Assembly: GCA_964397315.1 (NCBI GenBank)
Contig: CAYNHV010000001.1
Coordinates: 12,367 to 76,366, forward strand
Length of the DNA stretch: 64,000 nt
Direction: 5' to 3'
DNA from: an uncultured Methanosarcinales archaeon
GTDB lineage: Archaea; Nanobdellota; Nanobdellia; Woesearchaeales; UBA12501
Positions 13,489 through 64,000 of the stretch are shown piece after piece. Numbering within the stretch: the first letter of the stretch is position 1; the number at the start of each line of letters is the position of its first letter. A program made the translations under genes and the position numbers. Below the pieces are notes generated by a model. That model had not been told where the DNA came from, made no database searches, and saw only the letters and a program-made list of their open reading frames with translations.

Positions 13489-13500
13489 CAAACATGATAA

Positions 13501-16106: not shown

Positions 16107-16125
16107 TTTAAGTCATTCTGCTCTT

Positions 16126-30078: not shown

Positions 30079-30332
30079 GAACTCTGGAGGAATTCACCCT
30101 TATAAAACGAGCATCATTCTTAGAACTCATAAACAGGAATGCAGCAAAGCTTGCATTAACCACCATATTTAGAGGAGGCTCAATTTCCTGCGCGTGAACT
30201 GAGTAACGCCGTTCTGGCGGCAATATCTGGAGGATTTACGAATCTTAAATAATATTCTGAGTGGCGGTCAACTTTGCTTGTGCTGAAGTGTTTTCAGCAA
30301 TCTTTAAATATGCGAAGTTTTGCTTAAACTAC

Positions 30333-48489: not shown

Positions 48490-48504
48490 ATTAGGGGGAT
48501 TATA

Positions 48505-49935
48505 ATGAAAGTTTTTTTAGTAAGTCCACCACAACCAAAAAAAGATTTAGTATCAAACTTAAGTAAAGGGGAGGGTTTTATTTTACCTTATAGTTTGCTG
48601 TGTATTGCAACATACCTTAATTACAAGAAACACAAAGCTAAAGTTTTGGATTGTCCTGCAGAGCACATATCTAATAAAAATCTTTATGATATAATAAAAA
48701 AAGAGAAACCTGATGTGGTAGGATTAACAGCTTTTACTTTTACTATCCCAAAAGCATACAACGCTGCTGAAACTATTAAAAAGGCTTCACCAAACACTAA
48801 AGTAGCTCTAGGCGGCATTCACGCAAGTGTTCTTCCTATTCAATGTTTAAAGGAGTGCAGGCATATAGATTTTGTTGTTATTGGAGAGGGAGAGTATGTT
48901 TTTGAAAGATTATTAGAGGCTCTCGAAAAAAAAGGCGCTCTTTCAGAGGTTAGTAATTTAGCATACAGAGAAGGAAAAGCCCATAGATTAACAAAAAAAG
49001 AGCATATATTTCTAGATCCCAATAAATTGCCTCTTCCAGATTATAGCTTATTAAACATGGACAGGTATGTTCCTCACAGGGGAAATTATAAAGATTTACC
49101 ATGTTACAGTTTTTATACCAGCAGAGGGTGTCCTTTCCAATGTTCATTTTGCTCTGCCAATATAAATATGGGAAGAATGATCAGAAGGAAAAGCATAAAC
49201 AGGTGTATTAAAGAGATAAAAATTTTGGTTAATAAGTATGGGGCAAGAGGACTGATAATCCAAGACTCAACATTTACCATCCAGAAAGAGTGGGTAAGAA
49301 ACTTTTGTAAAGCTTTATTAAAAAATAATATCAGATTAAGCTGGAGAGCTAATACAAGAGCAGACTGTGTGGACCTGAAAACCTTAAAGTTGATGAAAAA
49401 AGCAGGATGTTATAGGATTAATGTTGGATTTGAATCTGGAAATCAAGAAACACTGGATTTTATAAATAAAGGGACTACTCTAAAGCAGAATAAAAGAGCA
49501 GCATATCTTGCAAGAAAAGCAGGTTTGCAGATAGGGTCATCCTTCATAATAGGGCTTCCTAATGAAGGGATGAAGGAGGTTATGAATACTATCAGGTTCG
49601 CTAAGGAAATAAAAGCTAAACATGCTCAGTTTTACCTTCCCATACCCTATCCTGGAACAAAACTCATGGATTTATGCAAAAAGTACGGAGGGGTAAGAGA
49701 AAATACAAGATGGGAAGATTTTGGCTCTAGAGATTTCAGCAATGCAGTATATATAAACAAAAACTTTGACAAAGAAACCTTTAAGAATCTGCCCAATATG
49801 GCATTTAGAAGATTTTATCTTGATCCTAAAACAGTAGCCAGACTTATTTTTACTATAGGAAGCTTTCACGAGTTAAAAGATACTCTGGGAACTCTTAAAT
49901 CAATAGCAAAAAAAGCCATATTTAACAGACTATAA
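48505..49935 (+). CDS. B12-binding domain radical SAM protein (class B radical SAM, methyltransferase-like)
   Basis: N-terminal B12-binding-like region and 'YTSRGCPFQCSFCS' (CxxxCxxC). 476 aa. This is the start of a visibly AT-richer segment. Confidence 0.8.
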   Translation: MKVFLVSPPQPKKDLVSNLSKGEGFILPYSLLCIATYLNYKKHKAKVLDCPAEHISNKNLYDIIKKEKPDVVGLTAFTFTIPKAYNAAETIKKASPNTKVALGGIHASVLPIQCLKECRHIDFVVIGEGEYVFERLLEALEKKGALSEVSNLAYREGKAHRLTKKEHIFLDPNKLPLPDYSLLNMDRYVPHRGNYKDLPCYSFYTSRGCPFQCSFCSANINMGRMIRRKSINRCIKEIKILVNKYGARGLIIQDSTFTIQKEWVRNFCKALLKNNIRLSWRANTRADCVDLKTLKLMKKAGCYRINVGFESGNQETLDFINKGTTLKQNKRAAYLARKAGLQIGSSFIIGLPNEGMKEVMNTIRFAKEIKAKHAQFYLPIPYPGTKLMDLCKKYGGVRENTRWEDFGSRDFSNAVYINKNFDKETFKNLPNMAFRRFYLDPKTVARLIFTIGSFHELKDTLGTLKSIAKKAIFNRL

Positions 49936-49936
49936 A

Positions 49937-50797
49937 ATGAAAATACTAGTTACAGGATCTTCAGGTTACCTAGGAAATGCTTTTATTAAACAATTTAAGG
50001 ATGAGCATGATATAATAGGACTTGACAGAGACAATAGAAAAAGAGATTATAAAAAAGTGCAAGGAGATCTCTCTAATTATAAGAAAATCATGAAAAATCT
50101 GGATGAGATAAAAGATGTGGACTGCATAGTGCATTTTGCGAGCCTTACTGATATAAAAGAGTGTGAAAAAAACAAAATGGCGGCTTTGGAAACTAATCTA
50201 ATGGGGACATGGGCACTTTTAGAGCATGGAAAAAGAGTGGGCATAAGAAAATTCATATACATCTCCACAGGAAGCATATATAAAAAAACAGAAAAAGAAG
50301 TGTCAGAAGAAGATGAAACAGAAGCTGATAACTTTTATGAAAGCACTAAACTTATGGCAGAAGAAATCTGCAAACAATATTCGAATAAATTTGATATAAT
50401 AATGTTAAGACCTTTTTTTCCTTATGGAAAAAACACCCATCCAAACAGATTGATAAATAAAATCATTCAGAATGTAAAAGATGGAAAGAGCATAATTCTA
50501 AATAGAAAAAATAAGCCAATTGTATCTCCAATATATGTAGATGACATGAGCAATGCAATAGATACCATAATAAAGAAGGACAAAGAAGAAAAAATTTCAA
50601 TATATAATCTTGCTGGCCCAAACGGATACTCCATAAAAGAGATTGCAGAAATAATTGGGAAAATAATCAATAAAAAACCAAAATACCAAAAAGGAAAGTC
50701 AGACTCCTCCAACTTCTGTGGTTCTGCAATAAGACTTAAAAGTTTAGGTATTAAATTGCATAATATAGAGGAAGGCTTAAGATTAACCATGGAATAA
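49937..50797 (+). CDS. NAD(P)-dependent epimerase/reductase (RmlD/short SDR-like)
   Basis: 'ILVTGSSGYLGNAF', a 'YESTK' YxxxK. 286 aa. Confidence 0.6.
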   Translation: MKILVTGSSGYLGNAFIKQFKDEHDIIGLDRDNRKRDYKKVQGDLSNYKKIMKNLDEIKDVDCIVHFASLTDIKECEKNKMAALETNLMGTWALLEHGKRVGIRKFIYISTGSIYKKTEKEVSEEDETEADNFYESTKLMAEEICKQYSNKFDIIMLRPFFPYGKNTHPNRLINKIIQNVKDGKSIILNRKNKPIVSPIYVDDMSNAIDTIIKKDKEEKISIYNLAGPNGYSIKEIAEIIGKIINKKPKYQKGKSDSSNFCGSAIRLKSLGIKLHNIEEGLRLTME

Positions 50798-50833
50798 GTT
50801 GGCAACATCAGCAGTATATAGTTTAAAAAGAAT

Positions 50834-52702
50834 ATGTGCGGCATAACAGGATTATTCAATTTTTCAGGAAGTGCGGCTTCTGATGATGTAATCAAGAGCA
50901 TGACAGATGCCATAAAGCACAGGGGACCTGACGGCGAAGGTTTCTTTAGGGAAGGGAATATGGCTTTAGGCCACAGGAGGCTCTCTATAATAGACCTCAG
51001 TGAGAAAGGCAGCCAGCCCATGAAAGATGAAAACGCCTCTGTTATAATAGCATATAATGGTGAGGTTTACAATTTCAAGGATATCAGGAAAGAGCTTAAG
51101 GAGAAAGGCTATGATTTCAGGTCAGAAACAGATACAGAGGTTGTCCTTTATGCATACAAGGAGTGGGGCATCTCATGCATAAGAAGATTCAATGGAATGT
51201 TCGCTTTTGCATTGTGGGACAGGAAGAATAAAAAGGGCTATCTTGCAAGGGACAGGTATGGGATAAAGCCCCTCTATTATTACAAGGATGGGGAGAAGCT
51301 TGTCTTTGGGTCTGAGATAAAAGCCATACTTAAACATCCTGAAATAAAGGCAGATCTGGACTACAAGGCCCTCAAAGAGTATTTCACATTCCAGAATGTG
51401 CTGTCAGACAGGACCCTCTTTAAGGGAATAAGACTTATGGAGCCAGGCAGTTACATAGAATTCGGGCCTGAGACATTCAACAAGGAAAGATATTGGGATT
51501 ATGATTTCATCTCAGGAGAGCTAAAGCTTCAAAAAAAGGAGATAATAAGCAAGCTCAGGGAGATATTTGAAAGAGCTGTTAGGAGGCAGATGGTGAGTGA
51601 TGTGCCTGTCTCCAGCTATCTGAGCAGCGGGATGGACTCATGCTCAATAGCAACTGTTGCCTCCGGAAACACTGAAAACATGAGAACATTCACAGCAGGC
51701 TTTGACATGAGGGGGGTATCAGGTTTTGAGAATGATTTTGATGAGAGAGAAAAAGCCAGGATAATGGCAGAGCATCTTTCCACAGAACATCATGAGACAG
51801 AGGTAAGCTCTGAATTCATGGAAAAATCCATGGAAACCCTTGTTTACCATATTGAGGATTTAAGGATGGGAATGAGCTTTCCTAACTATGCTGTGGCAGG
51901 TCTTGTGTCAGGCCATAACAAGGTTGTGCTGGCAGGGACAGGAGGTGACGAGCTTTTCTGCGGCTACCCATGGAGATATAACCATGCTGTGGGCAACAAA
52001 GACAGAGGGGAATACATCAGGAATTATTATGGACTCTGGCAGAGGTTGGCAGGAGATGATGAGAAGCAGGAGATGTTCACGCAAGAAGCCTTAAGGATGA
52101 TGGAGGATTACGACACTTTTGAAGTGTTCAGGAAGGTTTTTGACAAAAAAAACATTGACCCAAATAATAACAGGGACTGTGTAAACAATGCGCTCCAGTT
52201 TGAAGCAAGAACATTCCTCCACGGTCTGCTTGTTATTGAAGACAAGATCAGCATGGCGCATTCCCTGGAGACAAGAGTCCCTTTTCTTGATAATGAGATG
52301 GTGGACCTTGCCATGAAAACACCTCTCAGTCTTAAGCTAAAGAATTATGAGAAGCTTATGAGAGCAGGGCCTGATGAAGCAGAGGCATTGAGAGGCAGTT
52401 ATGTTGAGTCCACAGACGGCAAGCTCATACTTAGGGAGGCCATGGAAGGGCTTATACCAGAGGAGATAGCCTTCAACAAGAAGCAGGGATTCTCTGCCCC
52501 TGTTGCAGAATGGTTCAGGAAACATAGCAGGAGCTATGTGGAAGATGTTTTGCTTTCAGAAAAAGCCTTAAATAGGGGCATATTCAACCCGGAATATGTG
52601 AGAAAAAGGCTGCAGGCCCATTTTGAGGGGAAGGAGAACAACAGGCTCCTCATATGGTCCCTGTTATGCTTTGAGCACTGGTGCAGGAGATGGTTGGATT
52701 GA
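50834..52702 (+). CDS. asnB: asparagine synthase (glutamine-hydrolyzing) family amidotransferase (WbpS-like candidate)
   Basis: Ntn 'MCGITG', 'GHRRLSIIDLS', PP-loop 'SSGMDSCSIA'. 622 aa. Confidence 0.85.
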   Translation: MCGITGLFNFSGSAASDDVIKSMTDAIKHRGPDGEGFFREGNMALGHRRLSIIDLSEKGSQPMKDENASVIIAYNGEVYNFKDIRKELKEKGYDFRSETDTEVVLYAYKEWGISCIRRFNGMFAFALWDRKNKKGYLARDRYGIKPLYYYKDGEKLVFGSEIKAILKHPEIKADLDYKALKEYFTFQNVLSDRTLFKGIRLMEPGSYIEFGPETFNKERYWDYDFISGELKLQKKEIISKLREIFERAVRRQMVSDVPVSSYLSSGMDSCSIATVASGNTENMRTFTAGFDMRGVSGFENDFDEREKARIMAEHLSTEHHETEVSSEFMEKSMETLVYHIEDLRMGMSFPNYAVAGLVSGHNKVVLAGTGGDELFCGYPWRYNHAVGNKDRGEYIRNYYGLWQRLAGDDEKQEMFTQEALRMMEDYDTFEVFRKVFDKKNIDPNNNRDCVNNALQFEARTFLHGLLVIEDKISMAHSLETRVPFLDNEMVDLAMKTPLSLKLKNYEKLMRAGPDEAEALRGSYVESTDGKLILREAMEGLIPEEIAFNKKQGFSAPVAEWFRKHSRSYVEDVLLSEKALNRGIFNPEYVRKRLQAHFEGKENNRLLIWSLLCFEHWCRRWLD

Positions 52703-52712
52703 ATGATAGGCA

Positions 52713-53297
52713 TCAGTCTATAGCAATCCTGTATGTGTTTTTGACCCTATCAATGTACCACTTATCTATAGAGAGTGTTGATGGATAGTTATATCTCTCA
52801 TCAACAGCAAAAATATTAACTTGCCCGAAAGAGGATGCTCTGTTATTGGACAGGTTAACAAATCCAAACCCTGCATAATAGTTTTTTCCGTCCCATTTCG
52901 GAAATGGCCTTGTAGGGGAGGTTAATGTCATGTACCATGTGCCGTTCCTATGCAGGGTTTTATAATAGTGAAAATCCCCCTGCAACACAAGATCTGTGTT
53001 GTACATTGCATTCCAGTGTTCAACAGTCCTGGCTTCAGTCTTACTCCATCCTATTGCCCTGCGTCCTTGGCTATCAAACAATACAGGGGGTTCGGATATC
53101 ATAATGAGAGTTTTGTTTCTATATTTCCTCAGATTATTTTTGATCCATTCCATCTGATTATCTGTTGGTTTGCCGCTGTGAAGTCCCACAGGATTTATCT
53201 CATTCCCGTTAACCACCATAAAATTATACTCGCCTACATTTGCCATAAAATTCCATTTCATGGTGGGAAATGTTCCGTTCTTTTTGGCCTCATTCAA
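52713..53297 (-). pseudogene. C-terminal fragment of a metallophosphoesterase (purple-acid-phosphatase-like), N-terminal metal-binding motifs absent
   Basis: 'LVLQGDFHYY' matches the GHxHxYER-type C-terminal motif. There is no GDxHG/GDxxDRG upstream, the in-frame upstream is closed by stops, and the only start is TTG. Confidence 0.4.
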
Positions 53298-53364
53298 AAT
53301 GTTTCTTTGGGAGTCAAAGAATACAGGCCTCCCAAATGCTTTTGCGTAAATGACCTCCTCCCCG

Positions 53365-53384
53365 ACCTAAAGGTCGGGGAATTA
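53365..53384. other. perfect 8-bp-stem hairpin CCCCGACC-TAAA-GGTCGGGG at the truncation point
   Basis: Palindrome read directly from the sequence. Confidence 0.5.
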
Positions 53385-53656
53385 AACCCCAGTGCTCACT
53401 ACACTCGCATTAGTGTTTTGGAGCCTCATTTTGCCCTTAGGGGCATTTTGAGGTTTTTAAATCTTCATCAAAATTACAGAAGAAGCATATTTCTAAATAT
53501 GGGCAAAACAGAGCTTGGTAATGCTTTTAAATGGCCTTTGGGATGTTTAGACTATTTTAAAAGAGGATTAAAGATAAACAATAATTTTATAAATGTGTGG
53601 TTTTAGATTATTTAAGTCCCGGAGGGGGTATTGAAGAGGGGTGTATATTTAGATAA

Positions 53657-54394
53657 ATGATAATTTTAACTTTTGACATGGACTGGGCACCTGATTGGAT
53701 TATGGAAGATATAGCTGACAGGCTGATTAAAAAAGAAATACCATCAACTTGGCTGGTGACCCATGAGACTCCTTTTATCAAGAAGTTATTAAAATACCCT
53801 TCTCTCTTTGATATAGGATACCACCCTGATTTCTTAAGAAATTCAATAGAAAAAAAAAGTGTTGATTCAATAATGAAAAAAATGAAGAGCATAATTCCTA
53901 GGAGAAACATCATAAGAACTCACTGCCTGTATCAGTATACTGACCTTTTAAGATATTTGTGTACAGACCATGATATACGAGTGGACCTTTCAGTCTATCT
54001 TCATCTGACTCAAGATATAAGATCTCATTTCCTGAATTGCAAGGACGGAAAAAAGCTTCTCAGAATACCTACTTTTTTTGAAGATGACCTCTTTTTTGGT
54101 GAAAACACAGATTGGGGCATAAAAGAGCTTGGAATAGAAAGGGAAGGGTTGAAAGTATTCAACTTTCACCCAATCCATATCGCCCTGAATTCAAAAGATT
54201 ACAGGGGATATAGCGAATTAAAAGAGGAAACGCATGATTTAAAACTTGTAAAAAAAGAGCAAATAAACAAGTTCTTTAATAATGAGAAAGGAATAGAATC
54301 CCTATTTAGTCAGTTAATTGAATTCATGGAGAAAAATAGAGATAAGGTTAAATCATTGCCTGATATTTCAAGAGAATTGGGAGTTAAAATATGA
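53657..54394 (+). CDS. hypothetical protein (possible polysaccharide-deacetylase-like fold)
   Basis: 245 aa; 'TFDMDWAPD', 'GYHPD', 'NFHPIHIALNS'. The family assignment is uncertain. Confidence 0.3.
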   Translation: MIILTFDMDWAPDWIMEDIADRLIKKEIPSTWLVTHETPFIKKLLKYPSLFDIGYHPDFLRNSIEKKSVDSIMKKMKSIIPRRNIIRTHCLYQYTDLLRYLCTDHDIRVDLSVYLHLTQDIRSHFLNCKDGKKLLRIPTFFEDDLFFGENTDWGIKELGIEREGLKVFNFHPIHIALNSKDYRGYSELKEETHDLKLVKKEQINKFFNNEKGIESLFSQLIEFMEKNRDKVKSLPDISRELGVKI

Positions 54395-55146
54395 GGCATG
54401 TAAATATTGATATAAATAAGAACCTGATTAAAGGATTAGGTGAAAATGATTTGTCTTTCCTTAAAAGAGTTTACTCAAAGAATATTAATAAATACAGAGA
54501 AAGAATTAAGATGATTGGATTTGAAGATAAAAACGCTGTGCTTGATGCAGGATGTGGTTTCGGACAGTGGCTTTTTTCCCTTGCAGATATGAACAAAAAG
54601 GTGGTTGGAATAGATTTTTCACAAGAGAGAGTTGATGTATGCAAGGAAATAGCACAAAAGAATAATATAAACAATGTTGAAGTGATTAAATCAAGCATAA
54701 CTAATACAGAATTGAAAGAAGAATCTTTTGATGCCATATTTAGTTATAGTTCAATCTATTTTACTGATTACAGAAAAACACTTAAAGAATTTTACAGGTT
54801 GCTTAAAAAAGGGGGAGTATTGTACTTCACGACCAATAGTTGGGGAAAGTATATATCTGATATCATCAATAATCCTTATCCAACCAGCGATTTTTATCCA
54901 AGATGGTATGCTATAAAGACAATATGGAATACATTCAAGAACAAAAGAGAAGGTTTCTCTATGGAAAACGGAGCCTTGGTTATGTCAAAAAAAAAGACTA
55001 AGAGAATAATGCAAAAAATAGGTTTTTATGATATAAGAATCGATTATGACGGCCACTTATGCACAAAAGACCGAGAACCGCTCCCTTTAGTTCCAGAAAC
55101 ATATATAGGCATGACTCATTCTTTTGAGGTGTTAGCAAGAAAATGA
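54391..55146 (+). CDS. class I SAM-dependent methyltransferase
   Basis: Motif I 'VLDAGCGFGQW'. 251 aa. Confidence 0.75.
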   Translation: MRHVNIDINKNLIKGLGENDLSFLKRVYSKNINKYRERIKMIGFEDKNAVLDAGCGFGQWLFSLADMNKKVVGIDFSQERVDVCKEIAQKNNINNVEVIKSSITNTELKEESFDAIFSYSSIYFTDYRKTLKEFYRLLKKGGVLYFTTNSWGKYISDIINNPYPTSDFYPRWYAIKTIWNTFKNKREGFSMENGALVMSKKKTKRIMQKIGFYDIRIDYDGHLCTKDREPLPLVPETYIGMTHSFEVLARK

Positions 55147-55958
55147 CATGCAACATCTTTTTCATAGTGGGTTGTAGCAGATCTGGCACCACAGCCCTGG
55201 TAAAAATTCTCAATACAGCAGTTAATGCAGAGGTGTTTACCGAACAGGAACCTAAACTCTGCATAAATGCAAGGATAAACTATGAGTTTGGAATGCCTCG
55301 CAGTAAAGATTACATAAAAGAAAGCAAGAGTAAGGCAATCAAGGCTACTCTCTCTAAAGGGAAAAAATATATGGATAAGAACCCTAATTATCTATTCTTT
55401 ATAGATGAACTGATGGCTAACTTTGATTGTAAATTCATTTTTGTTATCAGAGATGGGAGAGATGTAGTAAGAAGTGCTATGGATTATGATGAGTATGGAA
55501 AGAATCTTTACAGAACATTTGAAGATGAAGATAACCCAAAAACAGTGCAACCTGAAGAAGATTTCTGGGATTTTGCAAGACTAAGGCCAAAAAAAACAGA
55601 TACTATATTTTATAGTTGGAAGAGTCTGACAAGATTTGAGAAAGCATCATGGTACTGGGCAAAATTCAATGGTCTGATACTTAAAAAGATAGAGAAGAAG
55701 GATAAAGACAGATTTATTACTGTGGATATCTCAAACATAAATCTAAAAGAAATTGAAAAAATATTCAATTTTGCAGGGCTTGAAGGATTTAATAGAGACA
55801 TAATAAGCAAAATGCTCAAAGAAAGAATCAACTCAGCACAAGAAAAGTGGGGCCTGAAAGATATCTTTCCAAAATGGGATAAATGGGATAATAATATGAA
55901 AGAATCGTTTAGCAGATATGCAGGACGCATGATGAAAAGATTAGGTTATAATAAATAA
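55143..55958 (+). CDS. sulfotransferase family protein
   Basis: 5'-PSB 'FIVGCSRSGTTAL' and 3'-PB 'VIRDGRDVVRSAM'. 271 aa. Confidence 0.75.
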   Translation: MTCNIFFIVGCSRSGTTALVKILNTAVNAEVFTEQEPKLCINARINYEFGMPRSKDYIKESKSKAIKATLSKGKKYMDKNPNYLFFIDELMANFDCKFIFVIRDGRDVVRSAMDYDEYGKNLYRTFEDEDNPKTVQPEEDFWDFARLRPKKTDTIFYSWKSLTRFEKASWYWAKFNGLILKKIEKKDKDRFITVDISNINLKEIEKIFNFAGLEGFNRDIISKMLKERINSAQEKWGLKDIFPKWDKWDNNMKESFSRYAGRMMKRLGYNK

Positions 55959-55990
55959 GGAGACAATTCGATAAGAGAAGGGGGCATGAT

Positions 55991-57598
55991 ATGGAAATAC
56001 TGTTTTTAGTTTTGGTTCTTGCTTTTGGATTGCTATTGAGACTTGCTTTTATAACAAAGGAAGGCACAGATTTATATGTCCATTTCTGGTTAATTAAAAA
56101 GCAGAAAGGAAGAAAATGGGTAAACTATGAGGTAGAAGACTCAATAGTCAAGGGTGTTAGGGCTTACCCAGTGCTTAACCATCTCCTAGTAAGCAAACTG
56201 CCTGAAAAATACTGGATTACAGCAGGAAAGGTATTAAACGCCTCTTATGATATAATAACAGCCGTGCTTGTTTATATCACTGCGAGATTTGTAAATTTAG
56301 AGGGAGGGTTTTATTATAGTGTTGCAGGAATTAGCCTGCCATTGATTTGCACATTTGTATTCTTGACCCTCCCAGTTCTTTTGCCTTCAAGTGCTCGGAT
56401 GAGAACAATAGGGGGAAGGTCCATGGGGCTTCTTTTTGTTTCATTATACTTTGTCAGCTTGGGAGCGGGATATTTAATACACCCAGTCTATTTTTTTCCC
56501 TCTGTGATATTCGGTCTCCTTGCGATACTCAGCTCTAAGTTTGGTTTCCAGACCATCCTTTTATTTTCTTTTTTTCTGGCTTTCATCAAGCTTTCGGTTA
56601 TCCCTTTGATTATTACGACTATCCTGATTATAATAGCTTATACTTTTCCGAAATTAGGGGCATGGACAATAATAAAACACTGGTGGGATCACAGGATATG
56701 GTTCTTCAATAACTATGAGAAGTGTACAGCTTCAGCAGGAAGAAATAATATAAAAGATATACTATTTCTTCCGGTATACTTATTCAGAGACAGAAAAAAA
56801 TTCATCATGCAGTGCTATTTCAAGATTACACCATTAATGGCATTGAGAGTCGTCCCTGTTGTCGTTTTCCTTATCATAATAAGGTTTTTTTACCCTGGTA
56901 TCTGGTCAATAATTCAGAGTAATAGTTATCTGCTATTCTCCTGGGATATAACTGTTGCCTCAATATTCTCCTTCATATTAACTTCAATATATGTTTTTAA
57001 GGGTATGGGAGAAGCTGAAAGATATTTTGAGTACAGTTCTCTCTTCTACTCCATCATATTCCCATTTATAATTTTTAATATCTCTAAGTCAAGAGAAGAT
57101 ATATTATTCTCTGTTCTTTTGCTACAACTTGTGATTATATTATCACACCTTCTGGTTATAAATTATAACAAGCTTGTTGATTCTGAGACGATGATACCCA
57201 AGAACATGAAAGAGGCTGTTGAATGGATTAGGAATAATGTAAGAAAAAGCAATATATTGACGGTTCCCTGTAAACTTTCAGTAGTCTTATCATCCAATGC
57301 AGATAAGGATAACCTCAATAAATTCTATTTTAGGTTTATCATGACGAAAAGAGGGGGTCTAGATTACTTTGAAGAGGACACAGGGGGATACCATTATTCA
57401 CCAGTAAACGGCCTCATGAGATCTAATGAAGTTTTTAGTTTAACTCCCTATGAGATGAAAAGAAAATATAAAGCAGATTATATTGTTGTGGAAAAGAAAT
57501 ATTTTGAAGGTTTAAAGAAAACATTGGGAAAACAAGGCATAAAGTTCCTAAAGAATCCTGTTTTCGAGAATGGGAACTTCCTGATTTATAAGCTTTAA
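55991..57598 (+). CDS. polytopic membrane protein (putative glycan polymerase / GT-C-like)
   Basis: 535 aa with >10 hydrophobic segments, located inside the glycan cluster. Confidence 0.4.
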   Translation: MEILFLVLVLAFGLLLRLAFITKEGTDLYVHFWLIKKQKGRKWVNYEVEDSIVKGVRAYPVLNHLLVSKLPEKYWITAGKVLNASYDIITAVLVYITARFVNLEGGFYYSVAGISLPLICTFVFLTLPVLLPSSARMRTIGGRSMGLLFVSLYFVSLGAGYLIHPVYFFPSVIFGLLAILSSKFGFQTILLFSFFLAFIKLSVIPLIITTILIIIAYTFPKLGAWTIIKHWWDHRIWFFNNYEKCTASAGRNNIKDILFLPVYLFRDRKKFIMQCYFKITPLMALRVVPVVVFLIIIRFFYPGIWSIIQSNSYLLFSWDITVASIFSFILTSIYVFKGMGEAERYFEYSSLFYSIIFPFIIFNISKSREDILFSVLLLQLVIILSHLLVINYNKLVDSETMIPKNMKEAVEWIRNNVRKSNILTVPCKLSVVLSSNADKDNLNKFYFRFIMTKRGGLDYFEEDTGGYHYSPVNGLMRSNEVFSLTPYEMKRKYKADYIVVEKKYFEGLKKTLGKQGIKFLKNPVFENGNFLIYKL

Positions 57599-57612
57599 TA
57601 AATATATAACCA

Positions 57613-59088
57613 GTGGTTAATATGCAAAAAAACAGAATATCTCTTAAAAGAAACCTGATTTATGCTCTGTTCACCAATGCTTTTGTGGCTTTTATGGGGT
57701 TTCTTTTTCATGTGCTGATAATCAGGAATGTCAGCAAGGACTTGTATGGCCAATATTCCTATTTCATCAGTTTGTCATTGATATTTATTGCCCTTTCAAA
57801 CATGGGTTTGACAGGATATTATCTTGTTAATTCATCCAAAAGGAGAAAAGACATGAGTAAAAATTACTATAAAAGTATCTATTTAAGGAGTTTATTAGTA
57901 ATAATTGTTTCTCCTGTATTCTTAATAACATTCATCTTGTTAGAAAACACCCTCAATCTGATATTTTTAACGGTGCTTGCTTTTGTAATATCTGAGAGTT
58001 TCCTCAGAGGAACAATGATCGTTTTTCGCTCACAGGAGATGATCAAATACTGGTCCATAAACCAGGTCTTTTATTATTCAGCGAAATTTCTGCTTTTTTT
58101 CATATTTATTTACATAGTGGATTGGAGTTCGCTTTTATTGTTTCTTTTCCTAACGCTAACAAACACATTGCTCACTCTTTTAGTTAATAGCATATTGAAA
58201 AGAAAACTATTAAGGGTTTCTTTGAGAAAGCTCATTTTAGTTGCAAAAAAAGTTTCTGTAAAGCGCGAAATAAAGAGAATTGTGCCTTTTACATTATTTC
58301 AGGTTTTTTTTATTATGTTCTATAAAGTTGATGTTATAATGATTTCAAAGATGGTGTCTGATTCCGCCGTAGCGTTGTACTCCTCTGCTTTCCTTATAAT
58401 TCAGGCTTTAATCAATGTATCAAAAAGCATTTCAATAGCCATCGCTCCAAGATTTGCTCTTTATTACGAAAAATCAGAGAGAAAAAGATTAGACGAATTG
58501 ATTAACAAATTAATCCCCCTTATTCAGTACACAAGTTTTTTGATATTAGGAATAATATTGGTTTATGGTTGGAAAATAATAATCTTGATATTTAGCGAGA
58601 GATATTCGGATGCCGCAGGCATATTATCAATATTGATATTCTCTTTTTTTCTTATATTTTACCATGACCTTTTCGCCATATTGATGAACAATACAGGACA
58701 TGAATCTTATGCCACTTTATTCTATGGGATAGCTATGGCCATAAATATAATTCCAAACTTTGTGCTTATACCATTGTGGGGTGCGAAAGGAGCCGCAATA
58801 GCAACTGTTGCTGCATTTACTTTTCTGGCTTCTATATCATATATATACACACTAAGAAAGATAACTAATAAAATGGTCTTTTTCAGAAGATTTTTTATAT
58901 TCTCCATTATAACAGCAATTACATATCTTATCTGCAACCACTATTTCAAACAAGAGCTATTCCTTGGAGTAGCAGTTTTTGTTTCAATTTATACGTTATT
59001 GAGTATCATCCTTAAAGTATTTCCAGAGGAAGGTTTTAAGTTTATTAGAGGTATGATAAAAAGTATATCAACAAGAGCTAATAGATGA
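57613..59088 (+). CDS. MOP-superfamily polysaccharide flippase (Wzx-like)
   Basis: 491 aa with ~12-14 TM segments. The N-terminal 'LIYALFTNAFVAFMGFLFHVLIIRNVSKDLYGQYSYF' pattern is typical of Wzx/RfbX. Confidence 0.6.
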   Translation: MVNMQKNRISLKRNLIYALFTNAFVAFMGFLFHVLIIRNVSKDLYGQYSYFISLSLIFIALSNMGLTGYYLVNSSKRRKDMSKNYYKSIYLRSLLVIIVSPVFLITFILLENTLNLIFLTVLAFVISESFLRGTMIVFRSQEMIKYWSINQVFYYSAKFLLFFIFIYIVDWSSLLLFLFLTLTNTLLTLLVNSILKRKLLRVSLRKLILVAKKVSVKREIKRIVPFTLFQVFFIMFYKVDVIMISKMVSDSAVALYSSAFLIIQALINVSKSISIAIAPRFALYYEKSERKRLDELINKLIPLIQYTSFLILGIILVYGWKIIILIFSERYSDAAGILSILIFSFFLIFYHDLFAILMNNTGHESYATLFYGIAMAINIIPNFVLIPLWGAKGAAIATVAAFTFLASISYIYTLRKITNKMVFFRRFFIFSIITAITYLICNHYFKQELFLGVAVFVSIYTLLSIILKVFPEEGFKFIRGMIKSISTRANR

Positions 59089-59097
59089 GGCAGCATA

Positions 59098-60381
59098 TTG
59101 ATGAAAAGAATGTTCAATTATGTAAGAAATATAAACAGATTTAATGAGATTATAGTTCTCCTGTTTTTAGGTGTTCTGTTAGGAGTTGCTAGCTTCTTTG
59201 GTTTTCAAATGGTGTGCACTATCCTACTCTTTATTATTTTGCTTATGATAATTTGGAGAACAAAAAATAAGATCGTTATTGCTGCTTTTTTGATTCGTGT
59301 TGCCATACAACTCATGAATTATAGTTTCTCCATACTTGAGCCCAAAGGCACTTCAGTAGGTTACATGACAATTCTTGAAAGAGCGCGTTTTTCTTTGCTC
59401 ACACAAGGGGACCTTTCCAATGTCTTCTACCAGTCAGGATCATCCAGCTTCCCATACCTTATCCTGCTCTATCCCTTTGCTGTAATCTTCGGAGCATTCA
59501 TAATAAACTTCTTCATAATCAACTCTTTCCTGGGAGCCCTTGCAGTATTCAATGTCTTCAGGATCTCAGACAGGGTTTTCGGCAAAAAAACAGCAATCAT
59601 CTCCTCTCTAATTTTTTGTTTCTCCCCTTATATAGCCTACATGAATGGCGTTTTCTCGAGAGATCCTTTAATCTTACTAATAACTACTCAGATAATCTAC
59701 CTTCTTGTGGATATGGCAAAAAAGAACACGCTCAGACCATCAATATTTGTATTCCTGGGGCTGCTCTTCTTCCTGAGAGTGGAATCATTGCTCATAATAG
59801 CATTTGGCTTTGTAGCTTACAAGTTCATCCAGATAAAGGATATCAGGAAGAACGTACTGCTGATAGCCGCAGCTGTTATCCTTGTCATTTTTCTTTTATC
59901 AAATCTCACAGTATATATGTTTCCAAGAGGTGACTCCCCTGTAAACACGCTTGATGAGTTCAGGGATTATCGGTCTCATGGAAGATCAGTGTATCTAAAA
60001 CACCATCAGTATAACACTCTTTTAGATATTGTGTATTATCTACCATCAAGGTTTGTCTATTTTGCATATTCTCCCCTTCCTCATCAGATAGAAAAGCCCA
60101 GGGACCTGCTCGGGCTTGTAGATAGCGCTATACTGATAATGCTTACGATTTTTGCCTTCCTGTCCAAGAAAACTATTTTAAGAGACAAACAGGCCCTCCT
60201 AATGCTTATAATACTCCTGACAGGATTTGCAGCAAGCTCCATAATAGAGGGAAATGTGGGGGCTGCAATGAGGCACAGGATGCAGTACTCATTCATATTG
60301 TACATCCTAGGCAGTTATTACCTGTCAAAACATTTAAAGATACCAGCATTAGACAGGCTTATTAAGAAAAGGATAATCTGA
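59098..60381 (+). CDS. polytopic membrane protein (Wzy/O-antigen-ligase-like candidate)
   Basis: 427 aa with multiple TM segments and a large loop. Confidence 0.35.
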   Translation: MMKRMFNYVRNINRFNEIIVLLFLGVLLGVASFFGFQMVCTILLFIILLMIIWRTKNKIVIAAFLIRVAIQLMNYSFSILEPKGTSVGYMTILERARFSLLTQGDLSNVFYQSGSSSFPYLILLYPFAVIFGAFIINFFIINSFLGALAVFNVFRISDRVFGKKTAIISSLIFCFSPYIAYMNGVFSRDPLILLITTQIIYLLVDMAKKNTLRPSIFVFLGLLFFLRVESLLIIAFGFVAYKFIQIKDIRKNVLLIAAAVILVIFLLSNLTVYMFPRGDSPVNTLDEFRDYRSHGRSVYLKHHQYNTLLDIVYYLPSRFVYFAYSPLPHQIEKPRDLLGLVDSAILIMLTIFAFLSKKTILRDKQALLMLIILLTGFAASSIIEGNVGAAMRHRMQYSFILYILGSYYLSKHLKIPALDRLIKKRII

Positions 60382-60383
60382 AA

Positions 60384-61322
60384 ATGGAAAGAATAAATGG
60401 AATAATCAAAAAATCAATTCCATCTTTTAAAAGAAGGCATTGGTCGTTTGTAGCAGATATAAAAGCAGGAGATAAAAAATTATTTTTGAAGATACCAAAA
60501 ATGGAGATGGATTTAAGTCTTAAAAAAAGTATGAACAGAAAAAAGAACATTGAACAAGGAATAATTGAAGCTAGAAACCATAAAAAAGCTGAAAGGATTA
60601 AGTTCTCAAAAGGATTCAAAGTTACAAAACTGAGAGAGTACGTCAAAAAGTACAACTGCTTAGTGTTTGATTTTGTTGAGGGGAATAATTTATACAAGGT
60701 CACTCTCAATAATAATCTGATAAGAGATCAAAATCTTGAAAGAGTATTTAAGATAATTGGTAAAAATTTACATATAATGCACAGAATACAGGTTAGTAAG
60801 AAAAACAGTAAGACAGTTGCGGAAGAGATAATGAGATATTCTAAAAGTTTGAAACTACACATTGATAAAAGAGTAATCCACTACTCAAAAAAACAGATTG
60901 TGAAATGCGCTCTCTCAGCAGAAGGTTTTGAAATAAGGAACTTTATCACAAATAATAGATGCATATATTTTTTTGACATTGGAGAGCTAAAAGAAGCTCC
61001 AGTTTATGAGAATTTAGCAAGATTTATTGTAAGCTCTAAAATAATATATTGGAACAAGCTTTTATTCCTTGCCAGATTGAAGATTAATAAAGCTTATAAA
61101 AAATCCTTTCTTAAAGGATACGGGCAGAAAGAAAATGAGCCCATGCTACAAATATTCATACTTAAAGAGCTTTTAAGATTCTATTATCATGCAATATTGT
61201 CTCTTAACCATAGAGTCAAAACACGGTCTATGAGAAAATTAATAAAGCGCTGTTATATCGACAGGTTTTATAAGAGAGAGGTGAACAAATGCCAAGAAAA
61301 AATAATAAATTTGATTACATAA
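60384..61322 (+). CDS. protein-kinase-like fold protein (LPS-kinase/RIO-like, divergent catalytic loop)
   Basis: 'LVFDFVEGNNLY' hinge-like segment and 'IRNFITNNRCIYFFDIGE' in the catalytic-loop/DFG position, with Asn in place of the usual Asp. Confidence 0.35.
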   Translation: MERINGIIKKSIPSFKRRHWSFVADIKAGDKKLFLKIPKMEMDLSLKKSMNRKKNIEQGIIEARNHKKAERIKFSKGFKVTKLREYVKKYNCLVFDFVEGNNLYKVTLNNNLIRDQNLERVFKIIGKNLHIMHRIQVSKKNSKTVAEEIMRYSKSLKLHIDKRVIHYSKKQIVKCALSAEGFEIRNFITNNRCIYFFDIGELKEAPVYENLARFIVSSKIIYWNKLLFLARLKINKAYKKSFLKGYGQKENEPMLQIFILKELLRFYYHAILSLNHRVKTRSMRKLIKRCYIDRFYKREVNKCQEKIINLIT

Positions 61323-61984
61323 AAGATACCAAATTAAAGTATCAGGATAAAGAATATGCAAGGAAATATCATTCAGAGTATTCTGGAAAGCTAAACTTAA
61401 GCCGCTTGAAGCATAAAATTGTAGCATATAGAGAAATTAAAATTGTTAGAGATTTGATAGACTCCATCAACGCAGGAAATAAAATCAGGATACTAGACAT
61501 ACCTTGTGGAACAGGAAAGCTTTTTCCTATTTTCCTGAAAAGAGGATTCTTGATATATGCGGCAGATATATCTAAAGAAATGCTATCATGCATACCAAAA
61601 GAACACATCAAACCTCAAGTAAAAGAGATAAAGACCCTAGATGCTACAAGAGTAGGTTACAAAGATGGGTTTTTTGAGATAGTAATCTGCCTTAGACTAC
61701 TTCACAGGGTGCCACATAAATTAAGGAAAAGAATAATTAAGGAATTGTCTAGAGTCAGCTCTTCTTACATAATACTCAGTGTAGGGGAGCTTCCTTTTAT
61801 TACCAAGATGGTTCATTCATTAAAAGAATTATTCCGTGATGGCAAAACATTGCCCTCACCTGCAACACACAATGAGATTTTGGATCTTGCAAAAAAGAAC
61901 AATCTTGTGATAAAGAAAAGAAAACCAGTGTTTAGGTTTTTGTCAACAGAACATATATATCTTCTGGAAAAATGTGCGGAATAA
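61289..61984 (+). CDS. class I SAM-dependent methyltransferase
   Basis: Motif I 'ILDIPCGTGKLF'. 231 aa. Confidence 0.7.
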   Translation: MPRKNNKFDYIKDTKLKYQDKEYARKYHSEYSGKLNLSRLKHKIVAYREIKIVRDLIDSINAGNKIRILDIPCGTGKLFPIFLKRGFLIYAADISKEMLSCIPKEHIKPQVKEIKTLDATRVGYKDGFFEIVICLRLLHRVPHKLRKRIIKELSRVSSSYIILSVGELPFITKMVHSLKELFRDGKTLPSPATHNEILDLAKKNNLVIKKRKPVFRFLSTEHIYLLEKCAE

Positions 61985-62160
61985 ACCTCATCTTGGACTT
62001 AAGCAACAGGAAAGATCTGAAAAGTCTTGTTTCCTCTATGAACAAGTGCATATCTTACAGGGGCCCTGACCCACAGGGAATCCTTTTGAAGGATAATGCA
62101 TCTTTGGGTCATCGCAGACTGTCCATCCTTGATATTTCAGAGAGAGGAACTGAAAGATAA
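61972..62160 (+). pseudogene. N-terminal 62-codon remnant of an asparagine-synthase (AsnB) gene
   Basis: 'MCGINLIL...YRGPDPQGILLKDNASLGHRRLSILDISERG' parallels 'MCGITGLF...HRGPDGEGFFREGNMALGHRRLSIIDLSEKG' of the gene at 50834, then stops. Confidence 0.6.
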
Positions 62161-62291
62161 GTTTTAAAATCAATGGAAAATGAGATTAGGAAACTTTACA
62201 GGAGTTATTCCAAAAACAGAGAGGATGACTCAAAGAAGCTCTGGAACGTTTATGTGCTTTCAAAATGGCTGGAAAAGAACAGGATAGAACC

Positions 62292-64000
62292 ATGAAAATC
62301 CTTCACATCATAACAAAGCTTGAGGTTGGCGGGGCCCAGCAGAACACAATATACACTGTTGAGCACCTTAATAGGCAGGAGAATGTTCATTCTGAGATAA
62401 TCGCAGGCCCCATTGTCAGCAGGAAGAACCTGATGAAGAACGCAAGGGACAGGGGCATAAATGTCACTGTAATAAAAGGCATAACCAATGAGATAAGGCC
62501 TATAAAAAACCTCACAGCCATGCTGAAAGCCTACAAGCACATAAGAAAAGGAAGGTTTGACATTGTCCACACCCACTCCTCTGTTGCAGGAATAATAGGC
62601 AGGATTGCTGCAAGGCTGGCAAAAACACCAGTAATAATACACACAGTGCATGGCTGGGGTATCAGGCCTGACCTTCCAAAGTGGAAGCTGAAGATATACA
62701 TTCTCCTGGAAAGGATCTGCGCCAGATTCACACACAAGCTCATAACAGTCTCAGAGAGGGACATAAGAAAAGGCCTAAAAAACAGCATAGGAAAGAAGAG
62801 CCAGTACACTGTAATAAGAAGCGGGATTGACATCAGCAGATTCTCAAAAAATATAAACAAGGAAAAGAAGAAAAAAGAGCTTGGCATTGACCCAAAAAAG
62901 CCTGTAGTAGGCATGGTAGGAAGGCTTGACAAGCAGAAGAACCCTCTTGACTTTGTGAGAGCAGCCTCAAAAGTGCAGAAAAAGCATCCAGAAGTCCAGT
63001 TCATCATAGCTGGGGACGGGCCTCTGAGAAAGCAGACAGAATCCCTAATAAAAAAACTGAAAGTAAATAATTTCCACATACTGGGATTCAGGGATGATGT
63101 TAATGAAATCATCCAGATTTTAGACATCTCAGTCCTGACCTCCCTCTGGGAGGGCCTGCCAAGAGTGTTTCCAGAGTCAATGGCTGCAAAAAAACCAATC
63201 ATTGCAACAGATGTTGACGGAGCAAGAGAGGCAATAATCAACAGCAAAAACGGCTTCATAACACAGCCTAAAAAGCCGGAGCAGACAGCAGAAAAAATAT
63301 ATTTCCTCCTGCAGAATCCCAAAAAGGCAAAGAAAATGGGAGAAAATGGCTTTGCAATGGCTGAAAAGTTCTCCCTGAAAACCATGCTTAACAAATTATA
63401 TGAGTTATATCAGAGACGGCAAAAAATGTCTGGAATAAAAGAAAGTTTTATACTTAAAGATAGACCTGCATTACGTAATGCATTGTTCAAGATATTTCAG
63501 ATAATTAACATCACAGCCAGAAAATGTTTTATACCTCTTATAGGATACAACTCATCAGAAAAAATAGTGTCAGAGAGATACAGATTCGTCTGCATAACAA
63601 TACCCATTTGTGGAAGGACCACTCTTCTTGACCTTTTCAGAAATTATTTTGATGATTTTTACATAACAAAAAAGCCTCTCAGCAGATTACTAAAAAGAAA
63701 TCCAGAGTATAACAATTACTTCAAGTTCACAATAATCAGGAACCCCTGGAGCAGAACAGTATCGTGCTATAACAAAAGGGTAGTTAATATCAATGCGTTA
63801 AAAAAGGTTTACCTCCTGAGCAGGTTTAAAGGATTAAACCCAAATATGACATTCAAGGATTTCATAAGATGGCTTAACACAAAGGAGGGTAGTGACGAAA
63901 GAGCTGACAAGCACTGGAAGTCCCCCCATAAATTTCTCATGGATGGTAATGGTAAGATAAGATGTGATTATGTGGGAAAGCTAGAAAGTTTAAGCAGTGA
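62292..64000 (+). CDS. GT4 glycosyltransferase fused in frame to a Sulfotransfer_2-like (carbohydrate sulfotransferase-like) domain; 3' end beyond the window
   Basis: 'MKILHIITKLEVGGAQ' and 'EGLPRVFPESMAAKKPIIATDVDGAREAI...NGF' mark the GT4 part. From ~63430 the sequence reads 'RFVCITIPICGRTTLLDLF' and 'FTIIRNPWSRTVSCYNKR' (5'-PSB/3'-PB-like). No stop occurs between the domains in my reading. Confidence 0.65.
   Translation, partial: MKILHIITKLEVGGAQQNTIYTVEHLNRQENVHSEIIAGPIVSRKNLMKNARDRGINVTVIKGITNEIRPIKNLTAMLKAYKHIRKGRFDIVHTHSSVAGIIGRIAARLAKTPVIIHTVHGWGIRPDLPKWKLKIYILLERICARFTHKLITVSERDIRKGLKNSIGKKSQYTVIRSGIDISRFSKNINKEKKKKELGIDPKKPVVGMVGRLDKQKNPLDFVRAASKVQKKHPEVQFIIAGDGPLRKQTESLIKKLKVNNFHILGFRDDVNEIIQILDISVLTSLWEGLPRVFPESMAAKKPIIATDVDGAREAIINSKNGFITQPKKPEQTAEKIYFLLQNPKKAKKMGENGFAMAEKFSLKTMLNKLYELYQRRQKMSGIKESFILKDRPALRNALFKIFQIINITARKCFIPLIGYNSSEKIVSERYRFVCITIPICGRTTLLDLFRNYFDDFYITKKPLSRLLKRNPEYNNYFKFTIIRNPWSRTVSCYNKRVVNINALKKVYLLSRFKGLNPNMTFKDFIRWLNTKEGSDERADKHWKSPHKFLMDGNGKIRCDYVGKLESLSS

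Follow-up and report, generated by a model that had tools for sequence, protein, structure and literature searches.

A mosaic low-GC block, probably imported in large part, within the surface-glycan locus of an uncultured archaeon

How did a 15.7-kb block of glycan genes with an aberrantly low G+C content (GC) come to lie in the chromosome of an archaeon? The question is raised by a stretch of 64,000 nucleotides of contig CAYNHV010000001.1 (GenBank assembly GCA_964397315.1, positions 12,367 to 76,366), which comes from an uncultured Methanosarcinales archaeon and is referred to here, in its full length, as the window. The original prediction, made from the letters of the window, had described positions 48,490-64,000 as an AT-rich island with gene remnants, likely horizontally acquired or hypervariable. 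Our analysis indicates that this block is probably the variable and largely imported part of a larger surface-glycan locus, in which low-GC cassettes have recombined between resident genes.

The composition of the window was not uniform. GC was 46.3% at positions 1-48,489 and 36.1% at positions 48,490-64,000, and the profile in 300-nt windows fell from 0.45 to 0.33 across 48,250-48,550. A likelihood change-point scan of the window and of a 3-kb extension obtained from the Logan assembly (contig L131) placed the two strongest breaks at 48,460 and 64,190. The shift announced at about 48.5 kb is thus a sharp break. On the right, the island ends at 64,199, about 200 nt past the window edge, where GC returns to 46-50% in L131 at the stop codon of a gene encoding a fusion of a GT4 glycosyltransferase to a sulfotransferase. 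The surrounding genes are less GC-rich than the 50-60% that had been estimated by eye for smc and atp, since we obtained 46.1% for smc, 49.6% for the ATPase A subunit, and 50.9% for the ATPase B subunit, the host genes lying at 46-51%.

Codon usage was not uniform either. GC at third codon positions (GC3) ranged from 0.54 to 0.65 in 22 housekeeping genes and from 0.27 to 0.37 in nine island genes. Between the two sets, AAA/(AAA+AAG) rose from 0.30 to 0.73, the GAA fraction of glutamate codons rose from 0.21 to 0.63, the AGA:AGG ratio changed from about 1:3 to 3.5:1, and TTA increased from 2.7 to 27.7 per 1000 codons. Synonymous codon choice in the island is reversed, beyond mere relaxation. 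The enrichment in AAA and ATA codons that had been noticed by eye holds for AAA only, ATA being the preferred isoleucine codon in both sets and hence not diagnostic.

The block is itself a mosaic, in which low-GC cassettes (31-35%) are interleaved with host-like pieces (about 43%). Binary GC segmentation left this internal mosaic unresolved, and the GC of the segments was calculated directly (Table 1). One host-like piece comprises the gene of a glutamine-dependent amidotransferase (AsnB1) and a phosphoesterase fragment; the other comprises the remnant of a second amidotransferase gene (AsnB2) and the GT4 domain of the fusion. The picture of one AT-rich block at 48,490-64,000 is therefore correct with respect to low GC, but not with respect to internal uniformity (patches at 43% and 42%) or to the end of the block. 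At the other end of the window, an open reading frame (ORF) of 716 codons (138-2288, minus strand) has a GC of 37.8% and a GC3 of 0.35. It has no Pfam family (faint APH-like match, E = 0.018) and may be another low-GC insert.

Abrupt changes in composition may also result from an artefact, through assembly of a chimeric contig or through mis-binning that joins an archaeon to a low-GC organism. The contig is a metagenome assembly, and all ten proteins tested, including the ATPase B and D subunits, were singletons at 90% identity among 15 billion proteins, found in one NCBI contig and one SRA run. However, the Logan assembly of SRR7048227 crosses positions 48,490, 50,830, 61,970, 63,420, and 64,200 at 100% identity. 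Contig L131 is identical to 60,272-64,000 before continuing for 3 kb, and contigs L137 and L138 cover 43,111-53,439 and 54,223-60,295 at the same identity, L137 spanning the left boundary. Both outer boundaries and most of the inner joints were thus reproduced by a second assembler, probably from the same reads. In addition, the adjoining genes at each island junction are 1-36 nt apart or overlap, seven alternations of GC are not explained by a chimera of two genomes, and the neighborhood formed by GT4 and a gene for an AglH-like transferase was found again in another contig (L133). We therefore regard an artefact as extremely unlikely.

The relatives of the island genes point outside the host lineage. 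The best named relatives of the B12-binding radical SAM (S-adenosylmethionine) enzyme encoded at the left end of the block are bacterial, from Deltaproteobacteria (56% identity) and Omnitrophota (54-55%). In contigs of metagenome-assembled genomes of a deltaproteobacterium (L134) and of a member of the Omnitrophota (L135, GCA_024542985.1), this gene belongs to a module that adjoins WbpA/B/D/E and contains counterparts of most genes from the radical SAM gene to the flippase gene (identities in Table 1). In both contigs, the run from the WbmS-like gene to the flippase gene is collinear with 53,657-59,088 (five genes), the radical SAM gene being placed apart, since it immediately follows the WbmS-like gene in the bacterial contigs and precedes the short epimerase and AsnB genes in the window. 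A third contig (L136) harbors a subset of the module. The donor-like genomes and contigs of DPANN archaea have a GC of 31-36%, as does the island; the glycan clusters of L134 and L135 are uniform, at 48% and 36%, respectively. The bacterial best relatives, the collinear module, and the donor-like GC support the proposal of horizontal acquisition for the low-GC parts of the block.

An explanation without import from outside is that low GC is a long-standing trait of weakly expressed or fast-evolving glycan genes, which would have been inherited vertically and shuffled within the archaeal lineage only. The GC3 of the WbpD/E/B/A genes, which lie outside the block, is indeed already intermediate (0.37-0.49), and L133, which carries the nearest chromosomal orthologues of GT4 and of the AglH-like gene, displays the same contrast (23-32% versus 42-52%). 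This explanation accounts poorly for the bacterial relatives of the radical SAM enzyme, for the seven island genes that have homologues in clusters of Deltaproteobacteria and Omnitrophota, where five of them keep their order, for a fall in GC by 10 points inside the fusion gene exactly at the position where its orthologues end, and for synonymous codon choice that reverses rather than relaxes. We consider it unlikely, import of the low-GC cassettes remaining the preferred reading.

Comparison of GT4 orthologues revealed different cassettes beside this gene. In L133, the GT4 orthologue (62% identity) and the AglH-like gene (53%) are separated by two epimerase genes. GT4 is the first gene with host GC in that contig (flanks at 42-52%), and the 10 kb upstream, at 23-32% GC, encode Wzy_C, other GT4 proteins, a phosphodiesterase, and methyltransferases. 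In L132 (GT4 identity of 69%), the neighboring genes are again different and include an intact AsnB gene three genes upstream of GT4 and an AbiE pair at 9 kb from it. GT4 thus appears to be a conserved anchor gene bordered by different glycan cassettes in distant genomes. Hypervariability of the locus, which had been proposed, is supported at this long range only. Just past the glycan cluster of L132, we also noted a 34-aa epimerase remnant (11858-11962) and an IS91-family transposase gene (15542-16780).

The left flank of the block provided similar indications. The order WbpD-E-B-A, upstream from the block, was also found in L083, L084, and L085 (48-60% identity) and in L086, with a weaker WbpB (33%). 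In L084 and L086, WbpD, WbpE, and WbpA are 51-60% identical to the window proteins, and the genes beyond the Wbp block differ: GT2, a formyltransferase, a PMT_2 protein, and a flippase in L084; housekeeping genes including archaeal Taw1 in L086. The genome contigs matching the SDR (short-chain dehydrogenase/reductase) epimerase that precedes the block came from all phyla, with at most 71% identity among the matches listed, and the WbpA-like protein reached at most 61% in a metagenome scan. Among 80 loci fetched with this epimerase, 67 had enough sequence, and 57 of these contained an AsnB homologue on the same strand within 5 kb downstream. In the Woesearchaeota contig L002, the epimerase (71% identity), the short epimerase (42%), and AsnB (59%) are in the same order as in the window. 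Judged by this conserved pairing of the epimerase and AsnB, the break in composition at 48,490 falls inside a functional unit.

The joints of the mosaic carry scars of recombination, as had been proposed, and these could be defined more sharply as a probable internal deletion in AsnB2, the putative right end of an IS200/IS605-type element, and a one-base fusion. The N-terminal piece of AsnB2 (61,972-62,160; 62 codons including the stop), already recognized as an AsnB remnant, displays 43% identity to residues 1-61 of AsnB1 (E = 1e-17) and matches positions 1-60 of a profile made of 61 AsnB homologues (E = 1e-19). The stop codon is followed by 44 in-frame codons, which match positions 590-621 of the 629 positions of the profile weakly (E = 0.02-0.04) and have no Pfam match. 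The TGA stop codon of this second piece overlaps the initiation codon of GT4 as ATGA. AsnB2 is thus most likely an AsnB gene that has lost about 500 internal codons (about 1.5 kb), rather than a simple N-terminal stub.

The full-length sequence of the fusion protein (P0001, 635 aa) is on record. The nine GT4 proteins closest to it (57-69% identity) all stand alone, with lengths of 375-394 aa, and a sulfotransferase domain was present in none of the 120 best matches to GT4. The GT4 orthologues end where the fusion reads ...YQRRQK|MSGIKES, and GC drops from 43% to 33% at this joint, which contains a run of six adenines (A6). With five adenines, the GT4 frame would end as ...QKCLE*, as in the orthologues, with the sulfotransferase beginning at an ATG of its own and the two genes overlapping by 13 nt. 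Since this alternative gives two ordinary genes, the fusion hangs on a single base of the A6 run. It appears to be either very young or a consensus error.

A further scar is located between AsnB1 and the WbmS-like gene. The phosphoesterase frame is open on the minus strand from 52,713 to 53,357, and no match was detected for the fragment in Pfam, NCBIfam, or the PDB. An exhaustive search of 1.84 billion representative proteins resolved its identity by retrieving seven homologues only. The four best ones are 640-786 aa long and carry a Metallophos domain that spans roughly residues 320-650, in agreement with the assignment to a metallophosphoesterase C-terminus. The fragment aligns with residues ~409-595 of the homologues, about 400 N-terminal residues being gone. 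Metal-binding motifs I-III are absent, and the GNHE motif of the homologues is replaced by FFDSQ. The fragment had been placed at 52713..53297 and said to end at a perfect hairpin at 53365..53384. The hairpin exists; it is located at 53,359-53,380 and the frame remains open up to 53,357. It consists of a stem of 9 bp, with the stop codon that opens the phosphoesterase frame inside the loop, and is the sole GC-rich perfect hairpin of at least 8 bp in the window (0.06 expected).

The stretch containing the hairpin provided the best sub-threshold Rfam match in the window, to HgcC (RF00062; 31.9 bits; E = 0.0016 when computed over the whole window). Gomes-Filho et al. (PMC4615843) showed that the right-end hairpin of IS1341-type (IS200/IS605, tnpB) elements is part of HgcC RNAs. 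The hairpin with its UUUA loop and the sequence GGAGGUCA fit the 3' half of the HgcC model nearly base for base, CCCCGACC-UUUA-GGUCGGGG-AGGAGGUCA aligning almost exactly to model positions 86-116; the 5' half fits poorly. The motif CG..CTT.AG..CGGGGAGGAGGTCA was found in 17 stretches of IMG/VR, most of them downstream of a phage methylase gene and not of tnpB, and the exact hairpin motif was absent among the viral contigs searched. In L140 and L143, ORFs with OrfB_IS605 and Cas12f1-like TNB domains have the motif at their 3' end. Among eight aligned copies of the motif, similarity ends right after GGAGGTCA; by this criterion, the element stops at about 53,351, the position at which the phosphoesterase fragment starts. 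The window contains neither a left end nor a second copy of the element, L131-L133 gave no HgcC-like match, and no copy of the intergenic region 53,298-53,656 was detected in the rest of the window or in any fetched locus. The hairpin is best read as the putative solo right end, or omega-RNA remnant, of an IS200/IS605-type element, whose insertion or a later deletion would have truncated the phosphoesterase gene.

Additional observations were made on this region and its motif. A second stem-loop (53417-53456, GGAGCCTCATTTTGCCCTTAGGGGCATTTTGAGGTT) is present within the HgcC-like stretch, and the 359-nt intergenic region folds better than shuffled sequences (z = -3.1). In viral contigs L141, L144-L147, L150-L152, and L154, the hairpin and GGAGGTCA follow a DNA adenine methylase-like ORF, not tnpB. 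This viral motif could represent either the solo end of a transposon or an unrelated terminator or Shine-Dalgarno-like element.

Remnants of this type raise the possibility that the block as a whole is self-mobile, as an integrative element, a provirus, or a plasmid insertion, with glycan genes as cargo. AbiE toxin-antitoxin pairs are present on both sides (40.5-42.1 kb and 64.2-65.7 kb), a VapBC-like cassette is located at 42.2-43.0 kb, and the IS200/IS605 end remnant lies inside the block. In contrast, neither an integrase or transposase gene nor a tRNA gene or terminal direct repeat is present at the boundaries, which lie inside an operon-like row of genes. Our searches detected no tRNA and no boundary repeats or att sites, and no recombinase domain was present in any ORF scanned. 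The AbiE pairs (40480-42074 on the plus strand; L131:3915-5386 on the minus strand, equivalent to window positions 64186-65657) were considered as inverted repeats and rejected, being just 24% identical. Finally, the internal mosaic argues for several events and not for one insertion. A self-mobile element is thus a very unlikely explanation. The alternating composition and the three independent scars indicate more than one import event into the glycan locus.

Two repeats are present to the left of the block. A 170-bp repeat resembling a miniature inverted-repeat transposable element occurs at 13323-13492 and 42593-42762 (copies 98.8% identical), with terminal inverted repeats of about 9 bp (TGTCAAAAA / TTTCTGACA) and, internally, two hairpins rich in GC; an ORF for a PIN-domain (VapC-like) protein is interrupted by the second copy. 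A 92-nt direct repeat (42073-42164/43049-43140, 97% identical) brackets the VapBC-like cassette, of about 0.9 kb, just to the left of the glycan locus, and creates a second copy of the 5' part of gene 43082-43624.

Table 1. Features of the glycan locus, with GC of the segments and identity to the bacterial module in L134 and L135 (positions refer to the window).
Feature	Positions	Strand	GC	Basis or remark	Identity, L134/L135
Resident part of glycan locus	43658..48489	+	43.7%	GC3 0.37-0.49; Pfam
WbpD-like acetyltransferase	43658-44248	+
WbpE-like aminotransferase	44245-45351	+
WbpB-like oxidoreductase	45341-46336	+
WbpA-like UDP-sugar dehydrogenase	46326-47525	+
SDR epimerase	47512-48489	+
Left compositional boundary	48460..48504			Epimerase stop 48489, 15-nt spacer, radical SAM start 48505
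Segment	48,490-50,833		32.9%
B12-binding radical SAM enzyme	48505..49935	+	34%	Pfam PF02310 + PF04055	54-56%
Short SDR epimerase/reductase	49937..50797	+	31%	Pfam Epimerase, 2.3e-42	27-30%
Segment	50,834-53,350		43.3%
AsnB1, full-length glutamine-dependent amidotransferase	50834..52702	+	44.5%	GC3 0.51; Pfam, NCBIfam	47-48%
Metallophosphoesterase 3' fragment	52713..53350	-		Seven homologues; frame analysis
HgcC-like element	53337..53477	-		Rfam RF00062, sub-threshold; hairpin 53359-53380, putative end ~53351
Segment	53,657-59,200		33.3%
WbmS-like polysaccharide deacetylase-fold protein	53657..54394	+	33.5%	Pfam PF22537, 7.4e-48	28-29%
SAM-dependent methyltransferase, first	54391..55146	+		Pfam	39-43% (same position)
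Sulfotransferase	55143..55958	+		Pfam Sulfotransfer_3/_1	42-47%
535-aa polytopic protein, putative GT-C fold, most like STT3/PglB	55991..57598	+		AlphaFold2 + Foldseek	29-31% (~525-aa membrane protein in this position)
Wzx/MOP-type flippase	57613..59088	+		Pfam Polysacc_synt, MatE	Same Pfam family only
427-aa polytopic protein, weakly PMT_2/GT-C-like	59098..60381	+	38.5%
Segment	59,201-60,383		39.2%
312-aa protein	60384..61322	+	29%	No family match
Segment	60,384-61,971		31.2%
SAM-dependent methyltransferase, second	61289..61984	+		Pfam
AsnB2 remnant	61972..62295	+		Sequence + profile matches
Segment	61,972-63,425		42.3%
GT4 domain of fusion gene	62292..63425	+	~43%	Pfam
Fusion joint	63421..63428	+		A6 run 63421-63426, sulfotransferase ATG 63426-63428
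Sulfotransfer_2 domain of fusion	63426..64000, gene continues to 64199	+	35%	Pfam PF03567
Segment	63,426-64,199		34.8%
Segment outside island	64,200-67,012		46.0%
AglH-like PF00953 transferase	65,771-66,772 (window-equivalent)			333 aa, from L131

The gene families that had been listed for the block, from the B12-radical SAM enzyme to the GT4-sulfotransferase fusion, were all found again with Pfam (Table 1). In a scan that did not include the four Wbp-type genes, the epimerase and the island enzymes tested were below all NCBIfam equivalog cutoffs. The WbmS-like protein matches WbmS in the PDB (3HFT, 1.6e-22). The 535-aa polytopic protein has no sequence-family match in Pfam. The top 17 Foldseek matches of its AlphaFold2 model in the PDB are all GT-C proteins (STT3, PglB, DPY19), with E values down to 1.3e-4 and TM-scores of just 0.34-0.46 on a model of moderate confidence (pLDDT 64.8). 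Residue D27 of this protein, a candidate for the conserved acidic residue that GT-C enzymes have in their first external loop, is invariant in an alignment of 4 sequences only. For the 427-aa protein, the match to PMT_2 was below the Pfam cutoff (E = 1e-4) and that to NCBIfam LA_3751/2 was weak. The 312-aa protein had no match in Pfam, NCBIfam, or the PDB, and its AlphaFold2 model was unusable (pLDDT 36.8).

The window also encodes an A-type ATP synthase, SMC, and an STT3/AglB oligosaccharyltransferase (31,147-33,354, minus strand; Pfam STT3, 84.7 bits for a cutoff of 24.5). As judged from the A-type ATPase and AglB, the host is an archaeon. The score of the ATPase B subunit was 751 bits with the Methanosarcina mazei subunit 2C61 and 624 with the next group, suggesting that the host is probably related to the Methanosarcinales. 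Solved B subunits align with this 516-aa protein (16126-17676, minus strand) only through residue ~452-460, leaving a C-terminal extension of about 60 residues. The aglB gene lies 10 kb from the start of the glycan locus, with a P-type ATPase gene and toxin-antitoxin genes in between. Beside aglB, in DNA with host GC, are genes for an adenosine 5'-phosphosulfate (APS) kinase with an N-terminal extension (28040-28954, minus strand), a CysQ/inositol-monophosphatase-family protein (28947-29750, minus strand), and a resident sulfotransferase (30261-30893, plus strand). Since genes for the supply of 3'-phosphoadenosine 5'-phosphosulfate (PAPS) lie in host-GC DNA, sulfated glycans would belong to the resident biology.

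The glycan locus begins before 48,490 and, judged by its predicted products, spans 43,658 to at least 67,000. It opens with a WbpA/B/E/D-type set, enzymes of this type making UDP-2,3-diacetamido-2,3-dideoxy-uronic acids (PMC10622841), followed by the SDR epimerase (325 aa here, 324 aa as called on L137 with another start codon). Past the fusion gene, L131 encodes an AbiEii/AbiEi-like pair on the minus strand and then the 333-aa AglH/WecA-type transferase (PF00953).

From what is observed, namely composition, gene families, gene order, scars, the shared bacterial module, and the differing cassettes beside orthologous GT4 genes, we infer a direction of transfer, a chemistry, an attachment of the glycan to protein, and an order of events. 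The resident genes, with host-like or intermediate GC, would be WbpDEBA, the epimerase, AsnB1, AsnB2, GT4, and the AglH-like gene. The imported cassettes would comprise the B12-radical SAM enzyme, the short epimerase, the WbmS-like protein, two methyltransferases, two sulfotransferases, the flippase, and one or two GT-C proteins, and would have come from a gene pool common to low-GC bacteria and DPANN archaea. A one-base change in the A run would then have fused GT4 to an incoming sulfotransferase. In the cytoplasm, UDP-GlcNAc would be converted by WbpA/B/E/D into a diacetamido-uronic acid, which may be epimerized and amidated by the epimerases and AsnB1 and further tailored by the WbmS-like protein, the radical SAM enzyme, and the methyltransferases. 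Assembly of the glycan on polyprenyl or dolichyl phosphate would fall to the AglH-like enzyme and GT4, and the sulfotransferases would draw PAPS provided by the APS kinase encoded near aglB. The flippase would move the lipid-linked glycan across the membrane, and the GT-C proteins and AglB would, on the outside, extend it or pass it to surface proteins. A polysaccharide that stays lipid-linked or is secreted would be an equally plausible product.

Several points weigh against import of cassettes between resident genes, or against parts of this scheme. The nearest available genomes, at ~60-70% protein identity, are too distant to reveal replacement from strain to strain. The bacterial module is no more than 27-56% identical, the donor would be an unsampled organism, and the transfer may instead have run from archaea into bacteria or started from a third party. 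Low GC may be a standing trait of variable glycan genes, as the contrast in L133 illustrates, the closest GT4 orthologue (69%) sits in a genome of 29-35% GC, and the patches at 43% GC are designated as resident from composition and synteny only. Concerning the scars, the second AsnB2 piece is statistically weak, and the A6 fusion could be a consensus error shared by the Logan and genome assemblies, which probably derive from the same reads. The HgcC score does not reach the RF00062 gathering score of 50, so that membership in this family is not claimed, and tblastn with two TnpB proteins gave only E > 0.9 in the window.

We also considered, as a tentative and rather doubtful extension, that the WbmS-like, B12-radical SAM, methyltransferase, sulfotransferase, GT-C, and flippase genes, together with WbpABDE, AsnB, and the epimerase, might form a pathway, self-contained and hitherto undescribed, that produces a sulfated, methylated 2,3-diamino-uronamide glycan. 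The radical SAM enzyme would in that case catalyze new sugar chemistry, and the unit would have crossed between bacteria and archaea and been wired into the AglB system. The conserved uncharacterized B12-radical SAM module is in any case flagged as open to biochemical study.

The locus can be compared with several known systems. The HgcC-like stretch shares a GC-rich hairpin, a UUUA loop, and a GGAGGUCA tail with HgcC RNAs, sotRNAs, IS1341-type right ends, and their non-autonomous PATE derivatives (PMC4615843). It differs from them by a score below the threshold (31.9 for 50), a poor 5' half, and its location in a window devoid of tnpB and of a left end. WbpA, WbpB, WbpE, WbpD, an SDR epimerase, AsnB, and a WbmS-like protein are shared with the Pseudomonas aeruginosa Wbp and Bordetella wbm clusters (PMC10622841; 3HFT). 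Unlike these clusters, the window has the order D-E-B-A and additionally encodes a B12-radical SAM enzyme, two sulfotransferases, and two methyltransferases; the locus showed no 2-epimerase of the WbpI type. The L134 and L135 clusters possess the same module from AsnB to flippase next to WbpA/B/D/E, but they are uniform in GC, are devoid of scars, and carry the radical SAM gene elsewhere.

O-antigen and capsule clusters of bacteria are low in GC, are bordered by conserved flanking genes, and depend on Wzx. The locus resembles them by its sub-chromosomal GC, a co-oriented row of nucleotide-sugar, glycosyltransferase, and Wzx genes, remnants and insertion-sequence scars, and anchors at the edges. 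It differs by the absence from the window of Wzy, Wzz, and O-antigen ligase, by one or two GT-C proteins in their place, and by the proximity of AglB; the lipid carrier is presumably dolichyl phosphate and the acceptor a protein. The likeness to the remodeling of O-antigen or S-layer glycan loci, which had been proposed, thus holds, with O-antigen as an analogy only since the host is archaeal. A further parallel is the archaeal Agl pathway, as suggested by AglB in the window, the PF00953 transferase of initiating type in L131, and the Polysacc_synt flippase (57,613-59,088).

In archaea, the 'alternative' N-glycosylation cluster of Haloferax and the glycosyltransferase islands of Haloquadratum walsbyi have been interpreted as exchanged by horizontal transfer and recombination under virus pressure (PMC5867893). 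As in these systems, a surface-glycan cluster varies in content between relatives beside a more conserved glycosylation set. In contrast to them, variability is visible here only between distant genomes, the cassette is common to bacteria, and the locus is 10-15 kb from aglB rather than around it and lacks a homing endonuclease. The block combines the features of a flexible island: deviant composition with sharp edges, glycan content, anchors with differing cassettes, and outside relatives of the radical SAM enzyme (best matches, not trees). Variable low-GC glycan islands are already well known in bacteria and haloarchaea, and the value of this one is that of an example, not of a new principle. 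To the original prediction, our analysis adds the far boundary of the island, its internal mosaic, the archaeal context, the bacterial counterpart of the cassette, the reading of the hairpin as a transposon end, and the one-base nature of the fusion. The locus offers a detailed picture of the rebuilding of an archaeal surface-glycan locus, in which anchors are kept, low-GC cassettes from a pool common to bacteria and DPANN archaea are inserted, and scars that can be dated (the end of a transposon, a deletion within a gene, and a one-base fusion) mark the joints.

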